A stretch of 64,000 nucleotides of DNA from Candidatus Nomurabacteria bacterium RIFCSPHIGHO2_01_FULL_37_25 (GCA_001786765.1 MFTH01000008.1:2939-66938); one strand, 5' to 3'. Counted from the first letter of the stretch, positions 5,157 to 61,079 are shown. Notes: generated from the letters alone by a model not told the origin. Program-made: numbers and translations.

Positions 5157-6323
5157 ATGAATGAAATAAAAAAATTAGATGAAAAATTACAACCTAAAAT
5201 TGACGCTGGTGAAGCTAGTAATTTTATCAAAGCTCAAGAACTAACTAAAGATGATTACTTCAGGGGTGTCGCAAGAAAATACGAGCAGACTAGACCTATA
5301 AAAGATAGTATCGTTCGTCTTGACCAAGAAGCTAAAATTGTAGAGACACTTCGCGCAGATAAACCTGTACTAATTCGAGGAAATTGGCGTATGGGAAAAA
5401 CTAGCATGATGGAATCTTTACAAACACATCAATTTGGTTTGAAAAATTCTATTGTTGCTGATGTAATGATGGAAAATCCATACAGCGCTAAATCTCTTAA
5501 AAATTTTCAAAAACAATTTGGATTGAATGCCGTTGTTGAATTTATAGCAAAAAGAGAATTTAAGAAAAAGGATGAACTTAGAAAGCAAATAACAAAAAGT
5601 CGAAAATTTCCCTTCGAATTTCTTAATGACTATCTTATTGAGCATGGAGAAAAAGTATTTTTGTCTCTAGATGAGGTTATATTTTTTGCGGAGGAACTGG
5701 AAAAACTGAAATACCTCGCTAATCTAAAAAGTTTAAGTAATATACAGATTACCCTTGTGTTGCATAGAGTTGCTTATTATGAAAGTTCATTTAAGGAGAT
5801 TTTTGAAGAATATGAGACACATTTTGTGCGGGCACTAACTTTAGAAGAAGTCGAAACATTAGTACGAAAACCTCTTGAGGGAACACGGATAACTTTTACC
5901 GATGACGCTATTCAGAGAATTTTTGAATTTACAGGTGGTAGACCAATGGAAATTAACAATGTCTGTTGGGCTTTAATGGGCTCATCTGAACATAAAAATT
6001 ATAAATTTACTTATTCCGCGGAAGATATAGACGCATTAACTAGAAAAGAAACTTGGGAACTAGGAGAACCATTTAGGATAGCTATTGTTAATTATAAAAA
6101 CATTTATACTTCCTCTATGAACAACGAGGAACAAGCGATAATTGATAAATTGATTGAAAAAGGTGAAGTTCCTGTTTCAGAAATTGAAGCGGTAAAAGTA
6201 CAACCATTGATTGATACGACTTTCGTTACTAGAGATTTCGCTAAGGGAGCTTATCGTATAAATGGCGAACTATTTAAGCGGGTGGTTTTGGATAAAAATC
6301 TTTGGCCGCGAATTACTTATTAG
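5157..6323 (+). CDS. stand-alone P-loop ATPase (archaeal-ATPase/AAA-like, GNWRMGKTS Walker A)
   Basis: 388 aa; Walker A GxxxxGKT/S; size and architecture like Arch_ATPase/DUF234 proteins. Confidence 0.45.
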   Translation: MNEIKKLDEKLQPKIDAGEASNFIKAQELTKDDYFRGVARKYEQTRPIKDSIVRLDQEAKIVETLRADKPVLIRGNWRMGKTSMMESLQTHQFGLKNSIVADVMMENPYSAKSLKNFQKQFGLNAVVEFIAKREFKKKDELRKQITKSRKFPFEFLNDYLIEHGEKVFLSLDEVIFFAEELEKLKYLANLKSLSNIQITLVLHRVAYYESSFKEIFEEYETHFVRALTLEEVETLVRKPLEGTRITFTDDAIQRIFEFTGGRPMEINNVCWALMGSSEHKNYKFTYSAEDIDALTRKETWELGEPFRIAIVNYKNIYTSSMNNEEQAIIDKLIEKGEVPVSEIEAVKVQPLIDTTFVTRDFAKGAYRINGELFKRVVLDKNLWPRITY

Positions 6324-28748: not shown

Positions 28749-29213
28749 ATGGCAATAACAGAAAAAAAAGTTTCCGCCAAAGGCGGATCCGTCTCAGGCG
28801 GAAAAAATAAGAAAGAGCCTAAAGCAATTAAAGTTGCAAAAGCGCCTAAGGTTTCAAAAATTTCTCCGCAAAAGCAGAAATCTGTTCGCGCTGATACAAA
28901 AGATGCCAAAGTCATACTGCGTATTCGAGTCCGCGCTTACGAGAGTAAAATCTTGGATGCCTCAGTTAAACAAATCATAGATACGGCGGTTCGTTATGAT
29001 GCGGTGATAGTCGGACCTGTGCCTTTACCCACTGAAATAAAAAAATATACAGTCAATCGCTCTCCTTTTATTTATAAAAACACACGAGAGCAATTTGAAA
29101 TTCGTGTTCATAAAAGGTTGATTGATATCATAAACCCAAATACAAAGACTATTGAGGCTCTTACCAATTTGTCGCTTCCTTCCGGAGTAGATATTGACGT
29201 TAAAATGCTATGA
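28749..29213 (+). CDS. rpsJ: 30S ribosomal protein S10 with ~50-aa Lys/Ala-rich N-terminal extension
   Basis: C-terminal 100 aa match S10 (ILRIRVRAYESKILD...). Confidence 0.85.
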   Translation: MAITEKKVSAKGGSVSGGKNKKEPKAIKVAKAPKVSKISPQKQKSVRADTKDAKVILRIRVRAYESKILDASVKQIIDTAVRYDAVIVGPVPLPTEIKKYTVNRSPFIYKNTREQFEIRVHKRLIDIINPNTKTIEALTNLSLPSGVDIDVKML

Positions 29214-29333
29214 TCCCGTTAGAAGCCGCGATCGCAATTTAAAATATAAACAAAATATGAGATCAGATATTAGTAAAATTAATAACATAAAATGCGAGAT
29301 ATCCGAGTTGTTCGCGATCTGCTTCTAAACGGG
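29213..29333. mobile_element. palindromic MITE-like element E1 (type A), TIR TCCCGTTAGAAGC.../...GCTTCTAACGGGA, flanked by ATGA duplication
   Basis: ~22-bp terminal inverted repeat; ATGA at both flanks; downstream ATGA is the rplC start codon. Confidence 0.75.
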
Positions 29334-29942
29334 ATGAAATTCATTTTAGCAACAAAAGAAAATATGACGGAGTATTTTTCTGAAGAGGGTGTGGTTATCC
29401 CAGTAACGATACTTTCTGCCGGACCCGTGACGGTGACTAGAATTTTTGAAAAATCCAAAGATGGTTATAACTCTGTCCAAGTGGGTTTGGAAAAAAAGTC
29501 CCGACGCCCGAAGGGGTCGGGAGCCCGACCGCAAGCGTCGGGAAAAAATATCCTAAAAGAATTTAGATTAAAATCCGCCGACAAGATAGATGCAAAAAAG
29601 GGCGACAATATTGATGTTTCGGTTTTTGTTCCGGGTGATAAACTCCAAGTCTCCAGCGTATCTAAAGGCAAAGGCTTTCAGGGTGTCGTAAAGCGTCATG
29701 GTTTTAGTGGCGGTCCGCGCACTCATGGTCAAAAACATTCTGAAAGAGAGCCGGGAAGTATCGGAGGAGGACTCCGCACTCATGTTCCAAAGGGAATGAG
29801 AATGGCTGGCAGAATGGGCGGAGATCGCATTACCCAAAAGAATATCAAAGTTGTTTCTGTTGATAAAGAAAATAATATAATGCTGGTAAAAGGAGCAATC
29901 GCCGGCAAACGCGGGACTTTAGTTGAAATAATCAGCAGGTAA
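29333..29942 (+). CDS. rplC: 50S ribosomal protein L3
   Basis: L3 signature; the listed ORF start at 29292 lies inside element E1, so start set at MKFILATK. Confidence 0.9.
29503..29546. repeat. tandem GC-rich double hairpin (CCCGAC-N-GTCGGGA x2) inserted in frame in rplC
   Basis: gtcccgacgcccgaaggggtcgggagcccgaccgcaagcgtcggga; same element at 38072-38115. Confidence 0.7.
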
Positions 29943-29946
29943 TGAA

Positions 29947-30065
29947 CCCCGTTAGAAGTCGCGATCACGATTATGGCGATAATAAAGATATGAAAAAAGA
30001 TAACACAATACAAAAAAATAAAGAAAACTCTGAAAGTGTTGTATCGCGACCTACTTCTAACGGGG
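29947..30065. mobile_element. palindromic element E2 (diverged type A) between rplC and rplD
   Basis: ccccgttagaagtcgcgatcacg ... cgcgacctacttctaacgggg inverted repeat; 3' arm abuts a GTG start. Confidence 0.65.
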
Positions 30066-30727
30066 TGGAAGCAAAAATATACAATCAAAAAGGAGCTGAA
30101 ACCGGGACGATAAGTCTTCCAGAGAAAGTTTTTGCCGTCAAGTGGAAGAGTGACTTAGTGCATCAAGTTGTGCAAAGTATGAGAAGTAATAAAAGAGCAG
30201 GGACTGCCGACACCAAAGACCGTGGAGAAGTTCGTGGTGGAGGTAAAAAACCTTGGAAGCAAAAAGGTACAGGACGCGCAAGACATGGTTCAAGCCGAAG
30301 CCCTATCTGGGTTGGTGGAGGGGTAACGCACGGTCCGCTTGCTAAAAAAAATTATAAAAGAAAAATTTCAAAGAAAATGCGCGCGCAAGCTCTTTTCTCT
30401 GTTCTTTCAAAGAAGCTTAAGGATGAAGAAATTCTTTTTGTGGACACACTTTCTATGTCTTCTATCAAAACAAAAGATGCGGTAAAAGTAGTAGAGAATT
30501 TAGCGAAAGTTACTGATTGGAAAATGAAAGATTCTTCCCTGAAGCCTCGAGTGTTGACTGCGCTTTTTGGACGCAATGAAAAAACAGAAAAAAGTTTTAG
30601 AAATATTCCAGCATTAGAATTAGTATTTTTGAAGAATTTAAATCCATTTGATGTTTTAAATTATAAATATCTTTTAATAGAAAATCCGGTCGAAAGTATA
30701 AAATTTTTAGAATCTCGAGGTCAGTAA
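30065..30727 (+). CDS. rplD: 50S ribosomal protein L4 (GTG start)
   Basis: VEAKIYNQKG... matches L4 N-terminus; upstream part of the listed ORF is element E2. Confidence 0.8.
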   Translation: MEAKIYNQKGAETGTISLPEKVFAVKWKSDLVHQVVQSMRSNKRAGTADTKDRGEVRGGGKKPWKQKGTGRARHGSSRSPIWVGGGVTHGPLAKKNYKRKISKKMRAQALFSVLSKKLKDEEILFVDTLSMSSIKTKDAVKVVENLAKVTDWKMKDSSLKPRVLTALFGRNEKTEKSFRNIPALELVFLKNLNPFDVLNYKYLLIENPVESIKFLESRGQ

Positions 30728-30733
30728 AACAAC

Positions 30734-31012
30734 ATGACAATGATAATTAAAAATCCAAGAATTACCGAGAAAGCGTCTTTTGCGCAAGAGCAAAATGTTT
30801 ATACTTTTGATATTTCTTCCGGAGCTAGCAAAACCAACAAGACTGAGATAAAGAAAGCTATCTTTGCTCTTTACAAAGTAAAGCCTTTGAAAGTAAATGT
30901 TTTACCTGTGCCAAAGAAAAATATTATGTTTAAAGGGCGCGCTGGAGTAAAAGGCGGAGGCAGGAAAGCTTTAGTTTATTTAAAAGCGGGAGATAAAATT
31001 GAATTTATTTGA
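30734..31012 (+). CDS. rplW: 50S ribosomal protein L23
   Basis: L23 signature. Confidence 0.85.
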   Translation: MTMIIKNPRITEKASFAQEQNVYTFDISSGASKTNKTEIKKAIFALYKVKPLKVNVLPVPKKNIMFKGRAGVKGGGRKALVYLKAGDKIEFI

Positions 31013-31092
31013 CACTGAGGCATGACACTGAGGTACTTAGGTCTTGCCTCAGTGAAACAGTGAAAAGAAACACAATAAAACAATAAACAATT

Positions 31093-31932
31093 ATGAAAAC
31101 ATATAAACCAACAAGTAAATCACGAAGACAAATGACCCATGTGCTTTACAGGGAACTTTTGACGAAGTCACAACCGACCAAGTCTCTCACTTATGGTTTT
31201 AGACGTTCTGTCGGGAGGAATAGCAGAGGACGCATCACTGTGCGACATAAAGGTGGAGGACACAAACGTCTTTATCGCGAGGTTGATTTTTTATATAATA
31301 AAAAAGAAATTCCGGCTATAATAAAATCTATCGAATATGACCCAAATCGTTCAGCTTTTATTGGGCTAGCTATTTATAAAGACGGAGAAAAGAGATATGT
31401 TATATTGCCTAAATCTATAAAGCCCGGAGACTCTTTTATTGTTTCGGAAAAGGCGCCTCTCTCAGTCGCTAATAGACTTCCTCTTAAAAATATCCCAGTC
31501 GGGACTTTTGTTTATAATATTGAAATACAACCAAATGGTGGAGCGAAGATAGGTCGTTCCGCAGGAATTTTTGCGCAAGTAGTTGCTAATGCTGATGGAT
31601 ATACAAACATTAAAATGCCTTCAACTGAAGTCCGTAAAATAAATGAAAACTGCTTCGCGTGTATCGGTACTGTTTCAAACGAAGAACATCATCTTGAAAA
31701 TTATGGTAAAGCTGGACGAAGTCGCTGGAAGGGAATACGACCGACAGTGCGTGGAACTGCGATGAACCCTGTTGACCATCCGTACGGAGGTGGAGAAGGC
31801 AGACAAGGACGCGGAACAAAACGTCCAAAGACTATGTGGGGCAAAGTAACCGGCGGAAGAAAAACCCGCAGTCCAAAGAGATACTCAAATGTCTTTATTG
31901 TTTCTCGTCGTAAGACTGGGAAGAATAAATAA
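31093..31932 (+). CDS. rplB: 50S ribosomal protein L2
   Basis: L2 signature (GRNSRGRITVRHKGGGHK...). Confidence 0.95.
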   Translation: MKTYKPTSKSRRQMTHVLYRELLTKSQPTKSLTYGFRRSVGRNSRGRITVRHKGGGHKRLYREVDFLYNKKEIPAIIKSIEYDPNRSAFIGLAIYKDGEKRYVILPKSIKPGDSFIVSEKAPLSVANRLPLKNIPVGTFVYNIEIQPNGGAKIGRSAGIFAQVVANADGYTNIKMPSTEVRKINENCFACIGTVSNEEHHLENYGKAGRSRWKGIRPTVRGTAMNPVDHPYGGGEGRQGRGTKRPKTMWGKVTGGRKTRSPKRYSNVFIVSRRKTGKNK

Positions 31933-31970
31933 ATTTAAAATTTGTATCCTTTTTTGCGCTGTGGTATAAT

Positions 31971-32270
31971 TTGAATCTTATGAAAAAATTAACACTCAAA
32001 GAAATAAATTTACCAGTTACAATATTTAAAGAAGGCAAGAGTTATGTGGCGTATAGCCCTGCTCTTGATCTTTCTACTTGCGCTTCCACTTACAAAAAAG
32101 CGCAAACTAATTTTTCCGAGATTGTTGGAATTTTTATTGAAGAACTTGTAGAAATGGGCACACTGGATGTAGTGCTCCGAGAATTAGGCTGGCAGAAAAT
32201 AAAATCTAACTGGCAACCGCCAGTTGTTGTTTCAAATTATTTTCAACCGATGAATCTTTCGTATGCCTAA
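31971..32270 (+). CDS. hicB: HicB-family antitoxin
   Basis: 99 aa; PVTIFKEGKSYVAYSPALDLSTCAST HicB N-domain pattern; overlaps next ORF. Confidence 0.5.
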   Translation: MNLMKKLTLKEINLPVTIFKEGKSYVAYSPALDLSTCASTYKKAQTNFSEIVGIFIEELVEMGTLDVVLRELGWQKIKSNWQPPVVVSNYFQPMNLSYA

Positions 32271-32493
32271 GAAGCAAAATGTAACGAATAGGCAGTTTCA
32301 ACAATTTTTAATATATGTCGGTTGTTCTTTTAAAAGATCTAAAGGAGATCATTTTGTATATGCGCGTTCCGATTTAATACGCCCTATTATAGTTCCTAAA
32401 GATAATCCTCTACCTCAATTTATTATAAGAAATAATCTTAAATTGCTTGGAATGTCTTGGGAAGAATTTTTCAATATAATTGATAGAATATAA
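32263..32493 (+). CDS. hicA: HicA-family toxin
   Basis: 76 aa; GDHFVY...IIVPKDNPLPQFIIRNNLKLLGMSWEEF matches the HicA/YcfA core. Confidence 0.55.
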   Translation: MPKKQNVTNRQFQQFLIYVGCSFKRSKGDHFVYARSDLIRPIIVPKDNPLPQFIIRNNLKLLGMSWEEFFNIIDRI

Positions 32494-32498
32494 ATTAA

Positions 32499-32568
32499 AC
32501 CCGCAGTCCAAAGAGATACTCAAATGTCTTTATTGTTTCTCGTCGTAAGACTGGGAAGAATAAATAAG
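32499..32568 (+). repeat. 70-bp direct duplicate of the rplB 3' end (identical to 31863-31932)
   Basis: aacccgcagtccaaagagatactcaaatgtctttattgtttctcgtcgtaagactgggaagaataaataa present twice, bracketing the hicBA pair. Confidence 0.85.
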
Positions 32569-32609
32569 ACCTCACCTAAACCAAAAATTGTTTTTCCACA
32601 TTTTGCTGT

Positions 32610-32890
32610 TGCATTATTTCAAATATAATGTTAAAAAAACAAGCAGAAAGGGGGTGATGGTGTGGCAGTGATGCAAGTAAAAAGAACTCTTGCTAGAGCA
32701 AGGAAGAAAAAGGACCGCTTCTACTGGCATAAGAAGCGGCAGGCAACACGCTTAAGGAAAAGGAGGGTGAAAAGATGATACTGTTGTGGGGCTCTCTATT
32801 AAGGGGCCCCACTGTTGTTTTTACTCAAATATTTGACATTTTACTCTTATTTGCTACTATAAAACCAAGCTCGATTCGAGCTTTTTGTTT
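32610..32890 (+). ncRNA. candidate structured GC-rich RNA ending in a terminator hairpin
   Basis: no ORF; local GC well above genome average; several perfect hairpins (CCGCTTCT/AGAAGCGG, GGGGCCCC); AAGCTCGATTCGAGCTTTTT terminator at about 32866-32890. Confidence 0.2.
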
Positions 32891-32903
32891 ATATAAATTA
32901 TGA

Positions 32904-33024
32904 TCCCGTTAGAGATTATTCGGTTAAAATTTAACGGTTTATATAATGTATATACTAAAGTGAAATTATTAGTTTTAATAAGAAGACACAACGGAAATCT
33001 AAAGATTTCCTATCTCTAACGGGA
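32904..33024. mobile_element. palindromic element E3 (type B) upstream of rpsS
   Basis: TCCCGTTAGAGAT ... ACGGAAATCTAAAGATTTCCTATCTCTAACGGGA; ATGA on both flanks. Confidence 0.75.
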
Positions 33025-33377
33025 TGACAAGATCAATCAAAAAAGGCGTATATGTGGATGAAAGGCTTTTAAAAAAGATTGCCGGCAAAAATCCTCTTAA
33101 TACAGGAACCATAAAAACATGGAAGAGAGCTTGTGTTATATCTCCCGATATGCTCGGTTTTACTTTTGGTGTTTATAATGGCAAGGTTCATGTGGATGTC
33201 TTTGTTACTGAAGACATGGTGGGGCACAGATTGGGAGAATTTTCTCCAACAAAGAAATTTACAAAACACGGCGGAAAGATGCAGAAAGAACTCGAACAAA
33301 AGAAAATGGAAGCTGAAATAAATGCCGCCAAAGGGGCGACTGCGGCCGCGGCTGACGCCAAGGGCAGTAAAAAGTAG
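33024..33377 (+). CDS. rpsS: 30S ribosomal protein S19 (Lys/Ala-rich C-terminal extension)
   Basis: S19 core motif. Confidence 0.9.
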
Positions 33378-33383
33378 GAATGA

Positions 33384-33504
33384 ATCCCGTTAGAAGCCAC
33401 GATCGCAATTTGAAAAGAAACAAAAATATGAAATCAAGCATTATAAAAATTAATAATATAAAATATCAGACATGCGAGTTGATCGCGATCTGCTTCTAAC
33501 GGGA
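33384..33504. mobile_element. palindromic element E4 (type A) between rpsS and rplV
   Basis: ~85% identical to E1; flanked by ATGAA/ATGAA. Confidence 0.75.
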
Positions 33505-33896
33505 TGAAAGCATTTTTAAAAAATTACAGACAGGCTCCGAGGAAAGTTCGCTTGGTTGCGAGTCTCTTAAAGGGCAAGAGTGTTGTGGAAGCCCTAGCCG
33601 AGCTTGATTTTTTAGCCAAACGCGCAGGACTGCCTATAAAAAAGCTTTTAATTTCCGCAGTTTCCAATGCAAAATCTATGGGAATTCAAACAGATAATTT
33701 ATTTATAAAAGAATTGCGAGTAGATAAAGGCATAACAATGAAAAGAATGATGCCGGCGGCTATGGGCACAGGACACAGGATAAATAAACGCACGAGCCAT
33801 TTGAATTTGTTGCTCGCAGAAAAAGTTTTAGCAGTTAAAAATTCTCCAAAAAGGACAGTCCTTAAGAGAGTTTCCCCAAGGACCGTCCTTAAGTAA
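33504..33896 (+). CDS. rplV: 50S ribosomal protein L22
   Basis: L22 signature. Confidence 0.9.
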   Translation: MKAFLKNYRQAPRKVRLVASLLKGKSVVEALAELDFLAKRAGLPIKKLLISAVSNAKSMGIQTDNLFIKELRVDKGITMKRMMPAAMGTGHRINKRTSHLNLLLAEKVLAVKNSPKRTVLKRVSPRTVLK

Positions 33897-33900
33897 TAAC

Positions 33901-34614
33901 ATGTCAAAAATAGTTCATCCATACGCCCATAGATTAGTAATACTTCGAGACTGGAAAAGTCGCTGGTTTGCTGATTCGAAAAAATACGTTTCTTATTTAA
34001 AAGGGGACGTCCTTATACGTCAATATTTAGAAAAGAAATTGCGTGGCATGTATATTTCTTCAATTGAAATTGAAAGAAGCCGAAAAGCGACTAGGTTTAT
34101 AATCAAAACTTCTCGACCCGGTCTTATCATAGGCAGGAATGGCGAAGGAGCAACAAAATTAAAAGAAGATATTTTGAAAAAAATGGATAAATTGAAACTT
34201 CCAAAGCCGGAAGATTTCAAACTTGAAATTATTGAAGTAACAAATCCAGAAGCCGATGCCGCGATTGTGGCATATATGATTGCCGAAGGGTTAGAGAAAA
34301 GATTGCCATATCGTCGTGTTATTAAAACAATTATTGAAAAAGTTATGGCGGCGCGCGGAGTAGAAGGAGCGAGAGTGGTTCTCTCAGGCAGGTTGGGAGG
34401 AGCTGACATTGCTCGCACAGAAGAGCTCAAACGCGGGTCTATTCCGCTTCAGAGTTTCCGCGCTGATATTGATTTCAAGCGCGAGCGCGCCACTTTGTCT
34501 TATGGTGTTGTCGGCATAAAGGTTTGGATTTATCGCGGTAAAATTTTTGCCGACAAGAATATGAAAAATACAAAAAAGAACGAAATATTAGAAAATAAAA
34601 CAAAGTCTGATTAA
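33901..34614 (+). CDS. rpsC: 30S ribosomal protein S3
   Basis: KH plus S3-C domains. Confidence 0.9.
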   Translation: MSKIVHPYAHRLVILRDWKSRWFADSKKYVSYLKGDVLIRQYLEKKLRGMYISSIEIERSRKATRFIIKTSRPGLIIGRNGEGATKLKEDILKKMDKLKLPKPEDFKLEIIEVTNPEADAAIVAYMIAEGLEKRLPYRRVIKTIIEKVMAARGVEGARVVLSGRLGGADIARTEELKRGSIPLQSFRADIDFKRERATLSYGVVGIKVWIYRGKIFADKNMKNTKKNEILENKTKSD

Positions 34615-34618
34615 TTTT

Positions 34619-35047
34619 ATGTTAGTACCTAAAAAAGTAAAATTTAGAAAATGGCAGACTATGCGTAGTAATCCTAAAAAGACTTCGCCCGACACTCGCG
34701 GGACAAAACTTTCTTTTGGCTCTTATGGTCTAAAATCAGAAAGTCAAACACGCATCAAGTCGACCCAGATTGAAGCTGCCCGAAAGGTAATAGCCCGAAC
34801 ACTTACTAAAGCCGGTAAGTATTGGATTCGTATTTTCCCAGATCGTCCTTATACTTCTAAAGCCGCAGAGATGGGTATGGGAAAAGGTAAAGGGGATCCG
34901 CAAGGATATTGTTTTGATGTTTTTCCCGGACGCATCATTTTTGAAGTGGATGGAGTAAATGAAAAAATCGCCAAGGAGGCGCTTAGAAAGGCTGGTAGTA
35001 AATTGCCAATCTCTGTTAGAATTATGTCCAGAACGCATAAGCAGTAG
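34619..35047 (+). CDS. rplP: 50S ribosomal protein L16
   Basis: L16 signature. Confidence 0.9.
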   Translation: MLVPKKVKFRKWQTMRSNPKKTSPDTRGTKLSFGSYGLKSESQTRIKSTQIEAARKVIARTLTKAGKYWIRIFPDRPYTSKAAEMGMGKGKGDPQGYCFDVFPGRIIFEVDGVNEKIAKEALRKAGSKLPISVRIMSRTHKQ

Positions 35048-35062
35048 GTTGCGAAAAAATAT

Positions 35063-35263
35063 ATGAAAAATAAAAAAGAAAACTTGAAAGATATGAAAAA
35101 AGACGAACTCAACAAAAAGCTCGCTGTTTTACGAGAAAATGCAAGAGTTATAAGGTTTAAGTCTGAAGGTTCAAAATCAAAAAATGTGAAAGAACTTTCA
35201 GTTTTAAGGAAAAACATAGCTCGGATTTTAACGGAAATCAACCGTCAAAAAGTTATGAAGTAA
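35063..35263 (+). CDS. rpmC: 50S ribosomal protein L29
   Basis: size and position. Confidence 0.8.
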
Positions 35264-35277
35264 TTTTTATAAAAAAA

Positions 35278-35535
35278 ATGACAACAAAAATAGAAAGAAA
35301 AAATAAAAAAGGAAAAGGTAGCATCTTAAACGGGGTGGTGGTTTCAGACAAAATGGAAAAGACTGTTGTTGTAACTGTATCCAGATTTATCAAGCATCCC
35401 TTGTATGGTAAATATTATAAAGTGAGCAAAAAATACAAAGCGCATGACGAGGAAAATAAATATAAAGTGGGAGATAATATAGAGATAGTTGAGACAAAAC
35501 CAATTTCAAAAGACAAACATTTTGCCGTAATTTAA
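35278..35535 (+). CDS. rpsQ: 30S ribosomal protein S17
   Basis: S17 motif. Confidence 0.85.
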
Positions 35536-35665
35536 CGAACGAAGTGAGTATAAATTACGAGCATCCCGCCCCACTTTTAACATTAACATTTATTATCAAA
35601 TAAAAATTTTACAAACAATGAATTTTAAGTTAGTATCAAATTAATTATTAAAAGTGGAGCGGGAT
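35531..35665. mobile_element. palindromic element E5 (type C; arms CATCCCGCCCCACTTTTAA / TTAAAAGTGGAGCGGGATG)
   Basis: ~135-bp repeat, ~85% identical to E6, directly after the rpsQ stop. Confidence 0.7.
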
Positions 35666-35706
35666 GACGATTTTTATAGTCATTTCATTCCTTAAAAATC
35701 AGTCAT

Positions 35707-36078
35707 ATGATTCAAGCAGGCACATGGGTAAAAATAACAGATAACGCCGGAGGCACTGTAGGCAAAGTGTTCAAGATTTTAGGGTCTTCTAAAAAAAGAT
35801 ATGCTTCTTTGGGTGAACAAGTGATTATTGCCGTAAAGGTGGCAAGTCCCAGAAAGGGAGTTAAAAAGAAAGATGTGCATCAGGCGGTCATTGTGCGTAC
35901 CAGAGCTGCCTTTAGGAGAAAGGATGGATCTTATATTCGTTTTGATGATAATGCTGTGGTTCTTATAGAAAAAGGAAAGCTTGATCCAAAGGCTGGGCGT
36001 ATTTTCGGGCCAATTCCGAGAGAGCTCGCCGAGAAGGGATTTCAGAAAATTATTTCTTTAGCGCAGGAGGTCCTGTAA
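35707..36078 (+). CDS. rplN: 50S ribosomal protein L14
   Basis: MIQ...L14 signature. Confidence 0.9.
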   Translation: MIQAGTWVKITDNAGGTVGKVFKILGSSKKRYASLGEQVIIAVKVASPRKGVKKKDVHQAVIVRTRAAFRRKDGSYIRFDDNAVVLIEKGKLDPKAGRIFGPIPRELAEKGFQKIISLAQEVL

Positions 36079-36083
36079 ATTAA

Positions 36084-36215
36084 TGAACGGAGTGAATATA
36101 ATTTACAAGGATCCCGCCTCACTTTTAACACTAACATTCATAGATCAATTAAAATTTTACAAGCAATGAACTTTAAGTTATTATAAAAATTAAGTATTAA
36201 AAGTGGGGCGGGATG
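36084..36215. mobile_element. palindromic element E6 (type C) between rplN and rplX
   Basis: paralogue of E5. Confidence 0.7.
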
Positions 36216-36250
36216 CTCAAATTTGAAATTCGCTTCGCTCATAACAAATT

Positions 36251-36469
36251 ATGACAAAAATCAAAAAAGGAGACAATGTAACAATAATAACCGGCAAAGA
36301 TAAAGGTAAAAAAGGAAAAATCGTCCGTGTTTTGGTGAGTGAAAATAAAGTCATTATTGAAGGAGCGAATATGATGAAAAAACATCAGCGTCCGAGAAAG
36401 TCTGGTGAAAAAGGAAGTATAAAAAATATTGAGATGCCAATACATGCTTCCAATGTTAAGAAATTATAA
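36251..36469 (+). CDS. rplX: 50S ribosomal protein L24 (short KOW form)
   Basis: KKGDNVTIITGKDKGKKGKI KOW motif. Confidence 0.85.
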   Translation: MTKIKKGDNVTIITGKDKGKKGKIVRVLVSENKVIIEGANMMKKHQRPRKSGEKGSIKNIEMPIHASNVKKL

Positions 36470-36490
36470 ATAGAGTAAGAAGGGATGAAA

Positions 36491-36611
36491 TCCCGTTAGA
36501 GATCCTTCAGTTAAAATAATCAATAGAGTAAAAATATTATGATAAGTTTAAATAAATTATTAATAGTTATAAAAAGAACGGAAATCTAAAGATTTCCTAT
36601 CTCTAACGGGA
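36491..36611. mobile_element. palindromic element E7 (type B) between rplX and rplE
   Basis: same TIRs as E3/E8; flanked by ATGAAA/ATGAAA. Confidence 0.75.
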
Positions 36612-37186
36612 TGAAACATTTAATTATAAAAGAAAAAGAGAAAGAAGTGTTTGAAAAAATGAAAGAAATTTTTCGTTTCAAAAATACTTTTGCCTCTCCA
36701 AAAATGCAAAAGATTGTGTTAAATGTCGGCACGGGGACAGCTATAAAAAAAGATAAGAATAAAAATGACGAAATATCTCTTCGTCTAGCGAAAATTACTG
36801 GGCAAAAGCCGGTTACTAGGGGTGCTAAGCATTCAATCGCATCTTTCAAAACCAGAGCGGGTGACCCAATAGGAATTGTTGTAACACTGCGAGGAAAAAG
36901 GATGTATGCTTTTTTAGAAAAACTTATCAATGTCGCTTTGCCTCGCACGAAAGACTTTCGCGGTATCGCTCGTACGGGAGTAGATAATATAGGCAATCTC
37001 ACTATCGGTATAAAGGAGCACACTATTTTCCCAGAAACAGCTGATGAGGACATTCGGGATATCTTTGGTATGTCTATTACTTTGGTTTCTTCCGCAAAAA
37101 ATAAAAAAGAAGGCACAGCTTTCTTTGAGCTTTTAGGCGTGCCTTTGAAGAAAGAAGAGTCTGTTCGCAAGATTAAGCAAGGATAA
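36611..37186 (+). CDS. rplE: 50S ribosomal protein L5
   Basis: L5 signature. Confidence 0.9.
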   Translation: MKHLIIKEKEKEVFEKMKEIFRFKNTFASPKMQKIVLNVGTGTAIKKDKNKNDEISLRLAKITGQKPVTRGAKHSIASFKTRAGDPIGIVVTLRGKRMYAFLEKLINVALPRTKDFRGIARTGVDNIGNLTIGIKEHTIFPETADEDIRDIFGMSITLVSSAKNKKEGTAFFELLGVPLKKEESVRKIKQG

Positions 37187-48819: not shown

Positions 48820-49251
48820 TTGTTTCTGCTTCTCTCTTATTGCTATAATACTGGAATGGACAGAAGAAAGCTCATAAAAACTTTAATATACCTTATTTTT
48901 TTAATTTTTTTAGTAAATTTTTTCGCAAATAAATTCTACTGGTATTCTTCTATTTGGTATTTTGATATGATTATGCATTTTTTGGGCGGATTTTGGGTTG
49001 GGCTTGCCTATTTCTATATTTTTCTACTCCAAAATATGTCTAGTAGATTAATTTTCAAAATATTATTTTCAGTATTAATTATTGGTGTCGGCTGGGAAGT
49101 ATATGAAATCTTAGTGAACGATATTCTTGCGCAAAATCCTTTTAATTATATAGACACTGTGTCTGATTTATTTTTTGACTTATTCGGCGGTTTATGTGCT
49201 ATTCTTTATTTATGGATCCCGTTAGAGATTAAAAAGTTTAATATAAAATAA
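48820..49251 (+). CDS. hypothetical membrane protein
   Basis: 143 aa, 4 TM; its last codons overlap the 5' arm of element E8. Confidence 0.3.
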   Translation: MFLLLSYCYNTGMDRRKLIKTLIYLIFLIFLVNFFANKFYWYSSIWYFDMIMHFLGGFWVGLAYFYIFLLQNMSSRLIFKILFSVLIIGVGWEVYEILVNDILAQNPFNYIDTVSDLFFDLFGGLCAILYLWIPLEIKKFNIK

Positions 49252-49335
49252 AAAATATATTTATGATCAAATTGATTAAAATATTAATAGTAATTAAGGG
49301 TACGGAAATCTAAAGATTTCCTATCTCTAACGGGA
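49216..49335. mobile_element. palindromic element E8 (type B) upstream of the beta-CASP gene
   Basis: TIRs identical to E3/E7; ATGGA/ATGGA flanks. Confidence 0.75.
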
Positions 49336-55342: not shown

Positions 55343-55377
55343 TCTTGTGCTAGCACTGCGAAGCTTTAGCGAAGCAG

Positions 55378-55771
55378 TGGAGATGGGGGGAAATGAGCCC
55401 CCGTGCAGAAGGTTTTTGTCAAGAAGTCTACATACATAGCGCGTTTTTTGTTTTAAATTAAAAAATTCAGAAACGCGCGAAATATTTTTTAATCGAGCTT
55501 CTGTGTTTCGCCCCGACGGCGAAGCTGTGTCGGGACTATCCCGATAATATTATGCCTCTACTCATATATCGGAAGTCTATGAGAGAGACACGAGTTACGC
55601 GTAAGCGGAAACTCGAGCGAAAGCGAAGTCATTCATACTGAAGTATGGAGAGACTGCTTTCACCTTAGAAGCTAATTTTGCAATTAACATTTGAACGAAG
55701 TTTTACGAGATTACGTTCATGCTCGGTATGCGTCAATAACAAATGGCCTACTGTCTATGCCTTGCATCCCC
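55378..55771 (-). ncRNA. ssrA: tmRNA (ssrA), CCA not encoded
   Basis: minus strand: 5' GGGGATGCAAGGCATAGACAG pairs with 3' ...GGGGG-CTCATTT-CCCCCC-ATCTCCA, same acceptor pattern as B. subtilis tmRNA (GGGGACG/CGTCTCC); ~394 nt; next to smpB. Confidence 0.6.
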
Positions 55772-55897: not shown

Positions 55898-56344
55898 TCA
55901 ACGTTCTTTGTATTCTCTTCTTATTTCACGAAGAGTATCACGCTTTTTTAAAGTTTCACGTTTATCGTATTTTTTCTTACCCTTAACTAAAGCTATCTCT
56001 ATTTTGATTTTTCTGTTTTTATTATACACTGAAATCGGCACAATTGTCAAACTCTTGTTTTTCTCACTGCCGGCGAGTTCAAAGATTTCTTTTTTAGTTA
56101 GTAAAAGTTTTCTGTTGCGCAGTGGATCATAATCTTTTGGCGTATTTTTGACTTGATATGGCGGTATGTTGGAGTTTATCAAATATGTTTCTCCTCCCCG
56201 AACAGTAACAAAAGCTCCTTCGAGAGACATTTTTCCCCCTCTTATAGATTTTACCTCCACGCCCAAAAGCTCAATACCTGCTTCGTACTTCTCCAAGATT
56301 TCATAATTAAAATACACTTTTCTATTTTCCGCATAATGGGGCAT
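55898..56344 (-). CDS. smpB: SsrA-binding protein
   Basis: SmpB signature. Confidence 0.9.
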   Translation of the reverse strand: MPHYAENRKVYFNYEILEKYEAGIELLGVEVKSIRGGKMSLEGAFVTVRGGETYLINSNIPPYQVKNTPKDYDPLRNRKLLLTKKEIFELAGSEKNKSLTIVPISVYNKNRKIKIEIALVKGKKKYDKRETLKKRDTLREIRREYKER

Positions 56345-56418: not shown

Positions 56419-56697
56419 ATCCCGTTAGAGATTACTTATGTTTTATTACACATACATATTAAAAAGCAAGAAGGACGGTAAAATTTACACGGGACATACG
56501 CAAGATCTACGGAAGCGCCTAAATCAACACAATAAGGGTTTATCGACATATACGAAAGGCAGAGGCCCATTTGTTTTGATATATTACGAAGCGTGTTTAT
56601 TAGAAAGTAAAGCGAGGTCGAGGGAATTATACTTAAAATCGGGAATGGGTAAGCGTTATCTTAAAAGTAGATTGGGCGCTTCCTATCTCTAACGGGA
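56419..56697 (+). mobile_element. full-length palindromic element E9 carrying a GIY-YIG gene (putative autonomous parent of the type B MITEs)
   Basis: 5' arm ATCCCGTTAGAGAT and 3' arm CCTATCTCTAACGGGATG identical to E3/E7/E8; the loop is filled exactly by an 84-aa ORF. Confidence 0.75.
56438..56692 (+). CDS. GIY-YIG nuclease family protein (COG2827-like)
   Basis: YTYILKSKKDGKIYTGHTQDLRKRLNQHN GIY-YIG core; stop codon TAA lies inside the 3' TIR. Confidence 0.7.
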   Translation: MFYYTYILKSKKDGKIYTGHTQDLRKRLNQHNKGLSTYTKGRGPFVLIYYEACLLESKARSRELYLKSGMGKRYLKSRLGASYL

Positions 56698-58736: not shown

Positions 58737-61079
58737 TTACTCAAAATGAAATTCACCGGCTTTTTGGTGAACTTTTTGTTTAAGGAGGGGATAGTTTGAA
58801 AGTTCAGGATTTTCTTCTATCAAACGAATAGCTTCCGCGCGAGCGGCTTCCACCATTTTAATATTTTTAATCGCTTCCATGCCGAGATCAGTGATGCCCC
58901 ATTGTTTTACGCCTCCTAGTTCTCCGGCGCCACGAAGCGACAAATCTAATTCTGCCAATTCAAAACCATTCTTGGCGGTTTTCAATGCTTTCAGGCGAGC
59001 TATCGTTTTTTCACTTTTTGCTTCAGCAAAGATATAGCAATACGCTTGATGTGAGCTTCTGATTACACGTCCGCGCAATTGATGCAGTTGAGCCAGTCCA
59101 AAACGTTCCGCGCCTTCTATTATTATGACTGTGGCATTGGGGACATTTACTCCCACCTCCACCACAGAGGTGGCGCAAAGAATATTTAAATTGCCTTTTA
59201 CAAATTCCTGCATAACTTTTTCTTTTTTTTCCTTGCTCATTTTACTGTGGAGTACACCTATTTCATATTCGTAAAAAATTTCTTTTTTGAGACGTTTAGC
59301 TTCTGAAGTTACCGCTTTCATTTCTAGCGCTCCGAGCCGAGTGTTGCCGGACTCACCACGAAAATTTTCTGCTGAAAATTTTCTCTCTTCGTCGCCGTCG
59401 CTTCTCCGAAGGGTTCGCTCGACAACACTCGGCTCTTCGCCAGCTTCAAAAATTCTCGGACAAATTACATAGAGCTGTCTGCCAGACTTTAATTCTTTTC
59501 GTATTTGTTCATAAGTTTCCTCGCGCTTATCAGGTGTAATAATTTCTGTAATTATTTGTTTTCTGCCGGCCGGCATTTCATCTAGAAGCGACAGGTCCAA
59601 GTCGCCATAAATAGTAAGCGCGAGCGTGCGGGGGATGGGAGTAGCTGTCATAGAAAGCAAATGTGGCGCATTTGTAATTCCTTTTGCGTCTTTTCTCACT
59701 AGTTTTCTTCTTTGGGTTGTGCCAAATCTATGCTGTTCATCAATAACGGCTAATGCTAAATTTTTAAATTTTACAGTTTTTTGAATAAGAGCGTGTGTGC
59801 CTACAAGGATAGATATTTCTCCGTTCATTACCCATTTTAAAAGTTGCGCGCGAGAAATTGTAGTCCAGTTTACTTTACCATCGGGGCTGATTGTTTTTGC
59901 CGGAAATTTTCGACAACCGCTTCCCGTGATGAGTCCTATATTAATCGGCAAATACTGAAAATAATTTATAAAAGATTCAAAATGTTGAGTCGCTAATATT
60001 TCTGTCGGCGCCATATAAGCCACCTGCAGACCTGCTCGCAGTGTAACACTGCTCGTTGCGGGAGGGTTATAATTATTTTTTGCCTGATTTACTACAGCAT
60101 ATGCGGCCGTCGCTGCCACGGCAGTTTTTCCGCTTCCGACATCACCCTCCAATAGTCTAGACATAGGGAAGTTTTTTGCTATATCGTTTAATATTGTTTC
60201 AATTGATTTCGTCTGTGAGTTAGTGGGCTTAAAAGGAAAACGTTTCAAGAATTCTGCCGTATCTTTTCCACTTTGTTTTATTTGGAAAGATTTATTCTTT
60301 CTGTATTCAAATTTATCATGCTGGCGTTCAAGCTGAATGCAAAAAACTTCTTCAAAAGCGAATCTTTTGCGCGCAGACTCCGCATCTTTGGCATTTTTTG
60401 GTTTATGTATCCAGATGAGCGCAGTTTTTAGCGTTGGCAGATGATACTTATCTAGTATTTCTTTTGGTATGTAATCTTCTATCGTATCTAAAAACCGAGC
60501 TTCTTTCCCGCCAGAGGCGGGTCCGCCTTTGGCGGATATAATTTTTAAGATAGTGTGATAAAACCATTTTGAAGTTATTCCTCTGGTTTCAATATAAACA
60601 GGAAAACCAAATACCTCACTCTGTTTTTTCTTGTCAAAATTAAATAAAGAATCATGTATATCAATCGGCATTGAATCAACTTTTTTAAATTCTGGGTTTG
60701 CCAGATATTTGCCTCTTTTACTTTCCATTACTTTACCTGTGAATTCTACAAATTGTCCGGAATGTATCATTTTTGCCATATAAGCCTGATTAAACCAAAA
60801 TACTTTTATTTTTCCGGTTTCGTCTATTACTTCTCCTTCAGCTCTCAAGATTTTACTTTTATATCCTCGCTTTATATCTGGACTCCAAAATTTTCCATAT
60901 ACTGTGGCATATTCTCCTGCCACCAATTGATTTATGGGTTTTATTTCACTGATATGTGAATAGCGGACAGGGAAGTGAAAAAGCAGATCTGCCACAGAGA
61001 AAAGTTTGAGTTTATGTAAAGCTTTTTTCTGATTTTTATCCAAGCGGAATTTTTCTTCGAGTTTGTCGTGAAGTTGCAT
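58737..61079 (-). CDS. recG: ATP-dependent DNA helicase RecG
   Basis: SF2 motifs (GSGKT, DEQHRFG, MTATPIPRTL), N-terminal wedge/OB region. Confidence 0.8.
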   Translation of the reverse strand: MQLHDKLEEKFRLDKNQKKALHKLKLFSVADLLFHFPVRYSHISEIKPINQLVAGEYATVYGKFWSPDIKRGYKSKILRAEGEVIDETGKIKVFWFNQAYMAKMIHSGQFVEFTGKVMESKRGKYLANPEFKKVDSMPIDIHDSLFNFDKKKQSEVFGFPVYIETRGITSKWFYHTILKIISAKGGPASGGKEARFLDTIEDYIPKEILDKYHLPTLKTALIWIHKPKNAKDAESARKRFAFEEVFCIQLERQHDKFEYRKNKSFQIKQSGKDTAEFLKRFPFKPTNSQTKSIETILNDIAKNFPMSRLLEGDVGSGKTAVAATAAYAVVNQAKNNYNPPATSSVTLRAGLQVAYMAPTEILATQHFESFINYFQYLPINIGLITGSGCRKFPAKTISPDGKVNWTTISRAQLLKWVMNGEISILVGTHALIQKTVKFKNLALAVIDEQHRFGTTQRRKLVRKDAKGITNAPHLLSMTATPIPRTLALTIYGDLDLSLLDEMPAGRKQIITEIITPDKREETYEQIRKELKSGRQLYVICPRIFEAGEEPSVVERTLRRSDGDEERKFSAENFRGESGNTRLGALEMKAVTSEAKRLKKEIFYEYEIGVLHSKMSKEKKEKVMQEFVKGNLNILCATSVVEVGVNVPNATVIIIEGAERFGLAQLHQLRGRVIRSSHQAYCYIFAEAKSEKTIARLKALKTAKNGFELAELDLSLRGAGELGGVKQWGITDLGMEAIKNIKMVEAARAEAIRLIEENPELSNYPLLKQKVHQKAGEFHFE

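Follow-up and report, generated by a model that had tools for sequence, protein, structure and literature searches.

Correia elements (NEMIS) of Neisseria, the closest functional analogue for hairpins co-transcribed with genes, are short (~100-150 bp) multi-copy elements whose repeats form one long hairpin in the transcript and which, flanked by a short duplication, lie beside genes and are transcribed with them; they are cut by RNase III. Partial parallels are offered by the palindromic elements of Rickettsia, which are tolerated at essential-gene positions in a reduced genome, and by the IS200/IS605 insertion sequences and PATEs, which are very small, depend on hairpins and insert by a short specific sequence in a specific orientation. 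These likenesses were seen in a set of hairpins located in a 64,000-nucleotide (nt) stretch of Candidatus Nomurabacteria bacterium RIFCSPHIGHO2_01_FULL_37_25 (GCA_001786765.1, MFTH01000008.1:2939-66938), referred to below as the window, which is AT-rich (36% G+C) and contains tuf and the S10/spc ribosomal-protein operon. Seven foldback elements of one family (family A, E1 to E7) were found in the window. The original prediction, made from this sequence alone, had the hairpins generating processed, near-leaderless mRNAs or coupling structures for ribosomal-protein genes; the main point that it missed is the probable origin of the hairpins as ends of a mobile element specific for start codons. 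They are considered likely to represent the terminal inverted repeats of very small mobile elements, members of one family that sits at start codons and occurs widely in the Candidate Phyla Radiation (CPR)/Patescibacteria. A more tentative proposal, given slightly less than an even chance, is that the family represents a previously unrecognised class of autonomous ~275-bp transposon. Its sole gene would encode an 84-amino-acid (aa) GIY-YIG nuclease, similar to Slx1, with the fold-back DNA of the element itself as substrate, and it would parasitise start codons by capturing the host ATG with its initiation context for translation of the nuclease and then providing the host gene with a rebuilt ATG 4 nt behind the nuclease stop codon.

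Each of the seven window copies shares its last base with a start codon, of which this base forms the first position; the genuine genes that begin in this way are rplC, rplD, rpsS, rplV, rplE, a beta-CASP RNase gene and ftsH. All copies lie on the plus strand, and their coordinates run from the terminal T (C in E2) through the terminal A (G in E2). E1 (29214..29334, 121 nt, non-autonomous) occupies the rpsJ-rplC junction, where its left ATG (29210-29212) overlaps the rpsJ stop codon TGA (29211-29213) and its last A (29334) forms the A of the rplC ATG, the duplicated bases being TGA. At the rplC-rplD junction lies E2 (29947..30065, 119 nt), which has a C:G terminal pair instead of T:A and a GTG start codon for rplD (30065); its left ATG (29942) overlaps the rplC stop (TAATG), with the frame open through the entire element into rplD. 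Orthologous elements at the same site in three related genomes (L153, L120 and L136) have T:A ends, ATG and ATGGA duplications. E3 (32904..33024, 121 nt) is positioned on the start codon of rpsS, with the left ATGA at 32900-32903 and the rebuilt ATG at 33024, and E4 (33385..33504, 120 nt) on that of rplV, with ATGAA duplicated at 33380-33384 and 33504-33508 and a 39-codon mini-open reading frame (mini-ORF) extending from the left ATG to a TAA in the right repeat. E5 (36491..36611, 121 nt) is placed on the start codon of rplE, with ATGAAA duplicated (36485-36490 and 36611-36616). A gene for a beta-CASP/RMMBL metallo-hydrolase (RNase J/CPSF-like) has E6 (49217..49335, 119 nt) on its start codon; ATGGA is duplicated there, and the upstream ORF now stops within the element (49251). 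The only full-length copy in the window, E7 (56420..56697, 278 nt), sits on the ftsH start codon and has inverted repeats identical to those of E3, E5 and E6; it is located within the divergent smpB-ftsH spacer, beyond which a transfer-messenger RNA gene (Rfam, 111.9 bits) adjoins smpB (55375-55771 and 55898-56344, both on the minus strand).

The repeat is over-represented in the window, the 12-mer TCTAACGGGRTG occurring 15 times with up to two mismatches, against 4.7 occurrences expected, a count reached in 0 of 100 shuffles. E3 and E4 were present without any base difference in five independently assembled contigs from other samples, and they are therefore not assembly artefacts; these contigs are represented in JGI samples 3300025317 and 3300025311 and in ENA ERZ4903125, ERZ27254759 and ERZ27254767. 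With regard to the original prediction, the 3' arm was confirmed to abut the start codon in E1 to E7, but its ending was not AACGGGATG throughout: E1, with one extra A in its right arm (TCTAAACGGG), ends in TCTAAACGGGATG and E2 in AACGGGGTG. Likewise, insertions tolerated at seven essential genes had been listed, and this was upheld for rplC, rplD, rpsS, rplV, rplE and ftsH, whereas the foldbacks of the rplN region belong to another family, described below.

To extend the comparison beyond the window, a collection holding one genome per species was scanned for the right end of the element, using a pattern that ended in ATG. This gave at least 119 loci, nearly all labelled CPR, and the copy statistics drawn from the collection rest on these listed matches. 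Host labels among the matches listed included Saccharibacteria, Paceibacterota/Parcubacteria, Kaiserbacteria, Doudnabacteria, Wolfebacteria, Levyibacteriota and other CPR. When the same scan was applied to 2.9 million viral contigs, 20 matches were obtained, 0 of 20 with a left repeat; as the left repeat was absent in all, these were treated as chance hits and serve as a negative control. A phage vector was rejected on the same observation. The common layout was 5'-TCCCGTTAGA-RRY ... RYY-TCTAACGGGA-3', and in ~160 copies the borders read ATGNN|TCCCGTTAGA on the left and TCTAACGGG|ATGNN on the right, with NN identical on both sides. Among the 117 copies located beside an ORF of at least 60 aa (the terminal T:A being counted as element), arm positions 1-10 were invariant, while positions 11-13 co-varied, A:T and G:C alternating with 93-97% Watson-Crick pairing. 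That these positions vary yet stay complementary indicates that pairing itself is maintained. The complementary run was 13 bp across the 117 copies and then broke off.

Upon folding, each window copy gave a single long hairpin (z-scores of -3.2 to -5.4), but its perfect helix was short, amounting to 13-14 bp, and not the perfect stem of ~22 bp previously described; only E1, E2 and E4 add 6-7 pairs beyond an internal loop. In all predicted folds the helix ended exactly at the A of AUG, leaving the AUG and the bases downstream of it unpaired. This geometry bears on the explanation from which the work started, namely that the stems are cut by RNase III or another double-stranded RNA nuclease to give mRNAs that start at or near the AUG and are translated in a leaderless or near-leaderless manner. 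A cut at the base of the stem would indeed yield 5'-AUG, E1, E2 and E4 hold an interrupted helix of ~20 bp, a stable stem at -1 requires neutralising in some way, and the Correia elements provide a precedent from general knowledge. The model calls for about two turns (20-22 bp) of double-stranded RNA. Four of the seven copies (E3, E5, E6 and E7), however, have a perfect helix of just 13-14 bp, a length that would make these four poor classical RNase III substrates, and the complementary run is 13 bp in the 117 collection copies; stem geometry thus weakly counts against such processing. Arm mismatches of the G:U type and the A:C type were about equally frequent (10 vs 8), which gave no signature of the RNA strand, and RNA-strand-specific selection was rejected for this reason. 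Rfam searches of the window at the gathering score returned only the transfer-messenger RNA and two tRNAs, and at E<=5 nothing was matched in family A, the weak microRNA-precursor look-alikes found being confined to the hairpins of the second family; a known riboswitch, ribozyme or intron was rejected accordingly. As the Shine-Dalgarno (SD) argument that had motivated the processing model was also found to be void (see below), RNase III processing is regarded as improbable.

The flanking sequences showed the pattern of integration. Of the 117 copies, 81 had an exact TGNN direct repeat of 4 bp, 9 had one of 3 bp and 5 one of 5 bp, and in 98 an ATG lay 1-3 nt before the left end. The duplicated ATGA of the original prediction was thereby borne out as a duplication of the start codon, although its general form is ATG plus 1-3 nt (ATGA, ATGAA, ATGAAA or ATGGA). 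The target logo read A 97%, T 100%, G 100%, R 92% and R 98%, the sequence upstream being merely AT-rich, and at empty orthologous sites the target sequence was present once, as expected before insertion. Copies with C:G ends (E2, L072 and L097) had GTG on the right and retained ATG on the left, from which it follows that the terminal T:A pair belongs to the element. Tandem insertions were also seen, the pairs being spaced by exactly ATGAA (...CGGG ATGAA TCCCG...). Filled and empty orthologous sites, together with the 117 copies, show that the element lies at A|TGRR within the start codon and points the same way as the gene, TGNN being duplicated. The 3'-terminal A of the element and the right-hand TGNN rebuild an ATG directly after the element, and the left-hand ATGNN leaves an overlapping upstream stop codon whole (ATGA at rpsJ, TAATG at rplC). 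Since the left copy keeps the stop and the right copy restores the ATG, neither neighbouring gene is damaged. An analogy with integron attC sites was considered and, on the sequence alone, rejected: the GTTAGA/TCTAAC motif resembles the attC core, but its halves appear reversed and NN appears to be truly duplicated.

Specificity for start codons was assessed with two samples gathered without regard to the following sequence, namely the window and a set of S10-operon loci found through S19 homology. ATG or GTG followed 17 of 17 copies (7 window copies and 10 distinct S10-operon elements). In the window, the gene starts behind all 7 copies were verified; for the other 10, the observation covers the ATG or GTG itself. 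Across the collection, 117 of 138 copies either stood where an ORF of 60 aa or more, or one leaving the locus, begins, or were the first of a tandem pair. The window holds 30 ATGRR sites at starts (7 occupied and 23 free), 54 at intergenic non-start positions and 472 in coding regions, so that finding 7 of 7 copies at starts has a probability of ~8e-4 even if all insertions in coding regions are assumed to be lethal. Orientation relative to the gene was shared in 22 of 23 pairs with similar interiors, and all nuclease ORFs, intact or decayed, pointed in the direction of the gene.

Comparison with related S10 operons then allowed occupied and empty sites to be distinguished at the starts of rpsS, rplV and rplD. 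The rpsS leader of the window was present in L145, L124, L127 and L159, but with a single ATGAC and no element. At the rplV start, the site was empty in L120, whose S19 is 97% identical, and in L123, L127, L145 and L159, and was filled in L122, L149, L195 and L130; overall, 69 of 80 related operons were without any copy. These data also bear upon the possibility that the hairpins are not selfish insertions at all but host regulatory structures (translational operators, thermosensors or attenuators) for ribosomal-protein synthesis. Such a role would account for the location of five of the seven window copies in the S10/spc operon, for the identity of E3 and E4 in five contigs that also have an identical rplV protein (the same population in several samples), and for the change of the E2 terminal pair from T:A to C:G on both sides while the L153 orthologue stayed T:A. 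It is difficult to reconcile, however, with the empty sites in close relatives, with the flanking duplications and nuclease-bearing parent, which are marks of mobility, and with the range of genes affected. The proteins encoded downstream fell into at least 116 unrelated Pfam families among the matches listed, including aminoacyl-tRNA synthetases, RuvC, L17, topoisomerase, RRF, trigger factor and adenylate kinase. A preference for ribosomal-protein genes was rejected in view of these diverse housekeeping genes, and the association that the original prediction had drawn with such genes was not sustained. Host regulation is therefore judged highly improbable, and insertion by a mobile element remains the preferred reading of these sites.

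Two other insertions were noted at the rplV start. In L124, beyond the S19 stop codon (~5855-5995), a different foldback (TCCGGTAGTAG...CTCACTAACCGGA) is located at the same rplV ATGAA with the same ATGAA duplication, which suggests a wider superfamily of foldbacks that target start codons. In L121 (~360-500), ~24 nt of the rplV 5' end (TATGAAAGCATTTTTAAAAAATTA) are duplicated around an insert of ~55 nt, which is another kind of insertion at this position.

Family-A copies fell into size classes of ~70-80 nt, 110-125 nt (the commonest), ~185 nt and ~275 nt, the last of which carries the nuclease gene and is, to our knowledge, smaller than any known insertion sequence. In E7, the 84-aa GIY-YIG nuclease ORF (56438..56692, plus strand) runs in the same direction as ftsH, and its stop codon TAA (56690-56692) belongs to the right inverted repeat and precedes the ATG of ftsH (56697) by 4 nt. 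The encoded protein matched Pfam PF01541 (E=2.9e-18) and, among PDB entries, the UPF0213 protein 1zg2 (E=5.1e-9) and 1ywl (E=6.7e-5). Its AlphaFold (AF2) model had a predicted local distance difference test (pLDDT) score of 90 and resembled the Slx1 nuclease domain with a template modelling (TM) score of 0.65-0.72 and a root mean square deviation of 1.4-3.4 A. Foldseek searches with the model returned 1zg2 and Slx1 (7cq2, 7cq3, 6seh and 4xlg) with a probability of 1.00, and I-TevI as a remote similarity only (E 0.4-0.5). Close homologues numbered more than 1183, nearly all of 84 aa, and the wider family comprised 7438 clusters at 50% identity.

The nuclease gene was without a promoter or SD of its own. 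The idea of a promoter within the element gained no support, 21 sigma-70-like sites being present between 28700 and 37200 against 21.8 expected. In some copies the nuclease is in frame with the captured host ATG (M-x-P-V-R-D...), and in others it starts at an ATG ~20 nt inside the element; variants of 92 aa begin with M[DSN]PVRD, the product of translation from the duplicated host ATG across the left repeat. The ORF always terminates in TAA CGGG ATG, with the TAA 4 nt before the host ATG. From the M[DSN]PVRD start and this ending it was concluded that the element borrows the initiation site of the host and would return the ribosomes 4 nt ahead of the host ATG. Slx1 cuts branched and stem-loop DNA, an activity that would suit an enzyme acting on a fold-back element. 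In the proposed mechanism, the Slx1/UPF0213-like nuclease would recognise the repeats when folded back or extruded as cruciform DNA and make the cuts needed for movement.

It was also possible that the foldbacks are moved in trans by an unlinked conventional transposase, the GIY-YIG protein being a passenger or a free-standing selfish nuclease within one subfamily. This would explain why the nuclease is a bare 84-aa catalytic domain, why its ORF is frameshifted in several full-length copies and why most copies have no nuclease gene. Against this, the stop and last codons of the ORF (..S-Y-L-TAA) are part of the right repeat itself, and the right arm of the short forms still retains these final codons (TTCCTATCTCTAA), which identifies the short forms as deletion derivatives of the long one. 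In addition, full-length copies from different phyla shared a single architecture of ~275 nt, and no other ORF was found between these repeats in ~160 copies. Mobilisation by an unlinked transposase is thus judged to be rather unlikely, and the nuclease-bearing form is preferred as the parent of the family.

The manner in which the neighbouring genes are expressed was considered next. The absence of a normally spaced SD, on which the original prediction had been built, was real, but it was not caused by the element: an SD-like motif (GGAG, GAGG or AGGA at -18 to -3) was seen in only 3 of 67 long window ORFs, and 87 reconstructed target sites had no purine-rich block upstream. Because the lack of SD sequences is a property of the whole organism, it is uninformative about the element; since the organism hardly uses SD sequences, insertion at -1 also destroys no ribosome-binding site. 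Translation of the host gene would then rely either on termination-reinitiation or on ribosomes that initiate directly on the unpaired AUG; short copies would achieve the same through a mini-ORF begun at the left ATG or through ribosomes entering at the free AUG. Reinitiation had likewise been predicted, and the evidence for it was mixed. On the one hand, the nuclease TAA is 4 nt before the host ATG, and the mini-ORF opened by the left ATG reaches the TAA of the right repeat, or fuses in frame, in 23 of 86 short copies. For the TAA frame, 35 of 97 copies (36%) had an open interior, compared with 18 of 194 (9%) for the other two frames; for the left-ATG frame, the interior was open in 28% of copies compared with 13% for other frames (p=0.005). 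Part of this bias may be a legacy of the parent ORF, and the openness of the TAA frame provides some sequence-based evidence that translational coupling may be favoured. On the other hand, most mini-ORFs end within 15 codons, and an upstream stop codon overlapped or abutted the left ATG in just 11 of 106 copies, both of which argue against coupling as a general rule. Left and right ATG shared a frame in 25 of 86 copies, with read-through in 5 only, and an in-frame N-terminal extension of the kind seen with the Rickettsia elements was rejected as a rule, E2 being one of the exceptions. A conserved coding element was rejected as well, the mini-ORF peptides having in common only their repeat-encoded ends (MxPVR... 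and ...SYL/ICF).

Several points weigh against a nuclease-driven element that is specific for start codons. The collection set was ascertained for ATG (though not for the ORF, the left duplication or the orientation), the gene calls were crude longest-ORF calls, and the orientation test comprised 23 pairs that are not independent of one another. We know of no GIY-YIG enzyme that acts as a transposase, the 84-aa protein is a catalytic domain only, lacking a DNA-binding domain, and a role for it in mobility is suggested solely by linkage. A duplication of 3, 4 or 5 bp is unusual for a transposase with a fixed stagger, and the target logo showed nothing beyond ATGRR by which start codons could be told apart from other sites. 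Furthermore, a 13-bp stem ending at -1 (with ~-30 kcal/mol for the whole fold) should hinder initiation, and terminating ribosomes would get far into the stem in E1 only.

Apart from family A, the window contains two foldbacks of a different family (family B), with repeats of the form ATCCCGCC...GGCGGGAT. The first (ATCCCGCCCCACTTTTAA...TTAAAAGTGGAGCGGGAT; 35553..35665, plus strand) lies in a 171-nt block (35536-35706) of the rpsQ-rplN spacer, and the second (36111..36214, plus strand) in a block (36079-36250) of the rplN-rplX spacer; the two are 81% identical, including a small upstream hairpin. Their CGGGATG is not a gene start, as rplN begins 44 nt and rplX 37 nt further on, and no target duplication was detectable at the foldback at 35553-35665. 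Membership of family B in family A was rejected given the absence of a duplication and of a position on a start codon. Family B was also found in L130 (8070-8211) and L126 (2649-2787), and in most relatives the rpsQ-rplN and rplN-rplX spacers measure just 3-30 nt. Hairpins of the form TTCCCGCCAWAGGCGGAC were observed in the S17-L14 spacer, right before the rplN ATG, in L153, L131, L163, L165, L174, L188 and others; their ends are like those of family B, and they might be remnants of it or a separate small repeat.

Other features of the ribosomal-protein region were recorded. At the 3' end of rplB, an exact 71-nt duplication (31862-31932 and 32497-32567) surrounds a 564-nt insert with two small ORFs, one of which (32263-32493) resembled the HicA toxin family PF07927 (E=3e-5, below the Pfam cut-off); the insert looks like a toxin-antitoxin cassette that was inserted with a duplicated end of the host gene. 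GC-rich double palindromes were found in frame within the coding sequences of rplC (29497-29550), rpsJ (28763-28805) and the 3' end of rplV (~33845-33893), and a further one is listed at 60504-60546. In rplC, the palindrome replaces the conserved L3 segment ERISKSSAGAMKGGFYKT of relatives with SRRPKGSGARPQASGKNI, which is of equal length. The stretch 32662-32883 contains an Arg/Lys-rich ORF of 38 codons (32662-32778), a terminator-like hairpin (32786-32812) and a promoter-like TTGACA-16-TACTAT (32833-32860), with the hairpin AAGCTCGATTCGAGCTT and a T-run just upstream of rpsS. As this hairpin leader is conserved in L124, L127, L145 and L159, rpsS seems to form its own transcription unit.

If the nuclease-bearing element is as proposed, prokaryotic transposons would gain both a new enzyme class and a new targeting logic, and the lower size limit of autonomous elements would have to be reset. 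A common unannotated intergenic sequence in CPR/Patescibacteria genomes would also be explained, together with the many tiny genes annotated there as 'GIY-YIG nuclease family protein'. The expression of essential genes despite a 13-bp helix that ends at -1 raises the question of SD-independent translation, and integration by an element of this size that is specific for 5 nt and for orientation, and whose scars are tolerated, would be of interest to tool builders. No description of this start-codon element was found in a search of the full-text literature, and it is apparently undescribed. Insertions that encode GIY-YIG proteins, are not introns and are seemingly not spread by homing have been reported as scattered in CPR rRNA genes (PMC11270868), and these may be the same element.

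Several differences separate the element from the systems that it resembles. The Correia elements have an unrelated 26-bp repeat and a TA duplication and are found in Neisseria, whereas the present repeat begins with TCCCGTTAGA, duplicates TGNN at ATGRR and is found in CPR; moreover, the present element coincides precisely with the start codon, the A of the ATG being its own, and its parent carries a GIY-YIG nuclease, whereas Correia elements are either orphans or derived from DDE insertion sequences. The Rickettsia elements lie in frame inside coding sequences and are translated, in contrast to a position at the start codon that is usually out of frame. In IS200/IS605 the hairpins are subterminal, no duplication is made and the transposase is an HUH (Y1) tyrosine enzyme, unlike the present element, which has inverted repeats and a duplication and whose only ORF encodes a GIY-YIG protein. 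The UPF0213/YhbQ/Slx1 branch matches the E7 protein in both sequence and predicted fold, but neither mobility nor flanking inverted repeats are known for its members, and Slx1 requires Slx4 and has a RING domain, unlike the bare 84-aa domain seen here. GIY-YIG homing endonucleases (Seg proteins and I-TevI) are likewise selfish genes that lie by host genes and need host transcription; they differ in having a separate DNA-binding domain, a single cognate site and a dependence on recombination with homologous flanks, with neither inverted repeats nor a duplication, whereas the present element is found at more than 100 genes that share only ATGRR. An intron-encoded homing endonuclease was rejected, there being no group I intron and no Rfam match to an intron or ribozyme. 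Taken together, the repeat, the TGNN duplication, the start-codon position, the regeneration of the ATG and the Slx1-like parent match none of the families known to us. Three of the features by which MITEs (transposable elements of the miniature inverted-repeat type) can be recognised were observed, namely terminal inverted repeats, a flanking duplication and presence/absence polymorphism at many unrelated loci, and a longer relative with identical ends encodes the GIY-YIG nuclease, which would be the mobilising enzyme. In its combination of repeats, duplication and short derivatives of a longer parent, the anatomy of the family is that of an insertion sequence with its MITEs.

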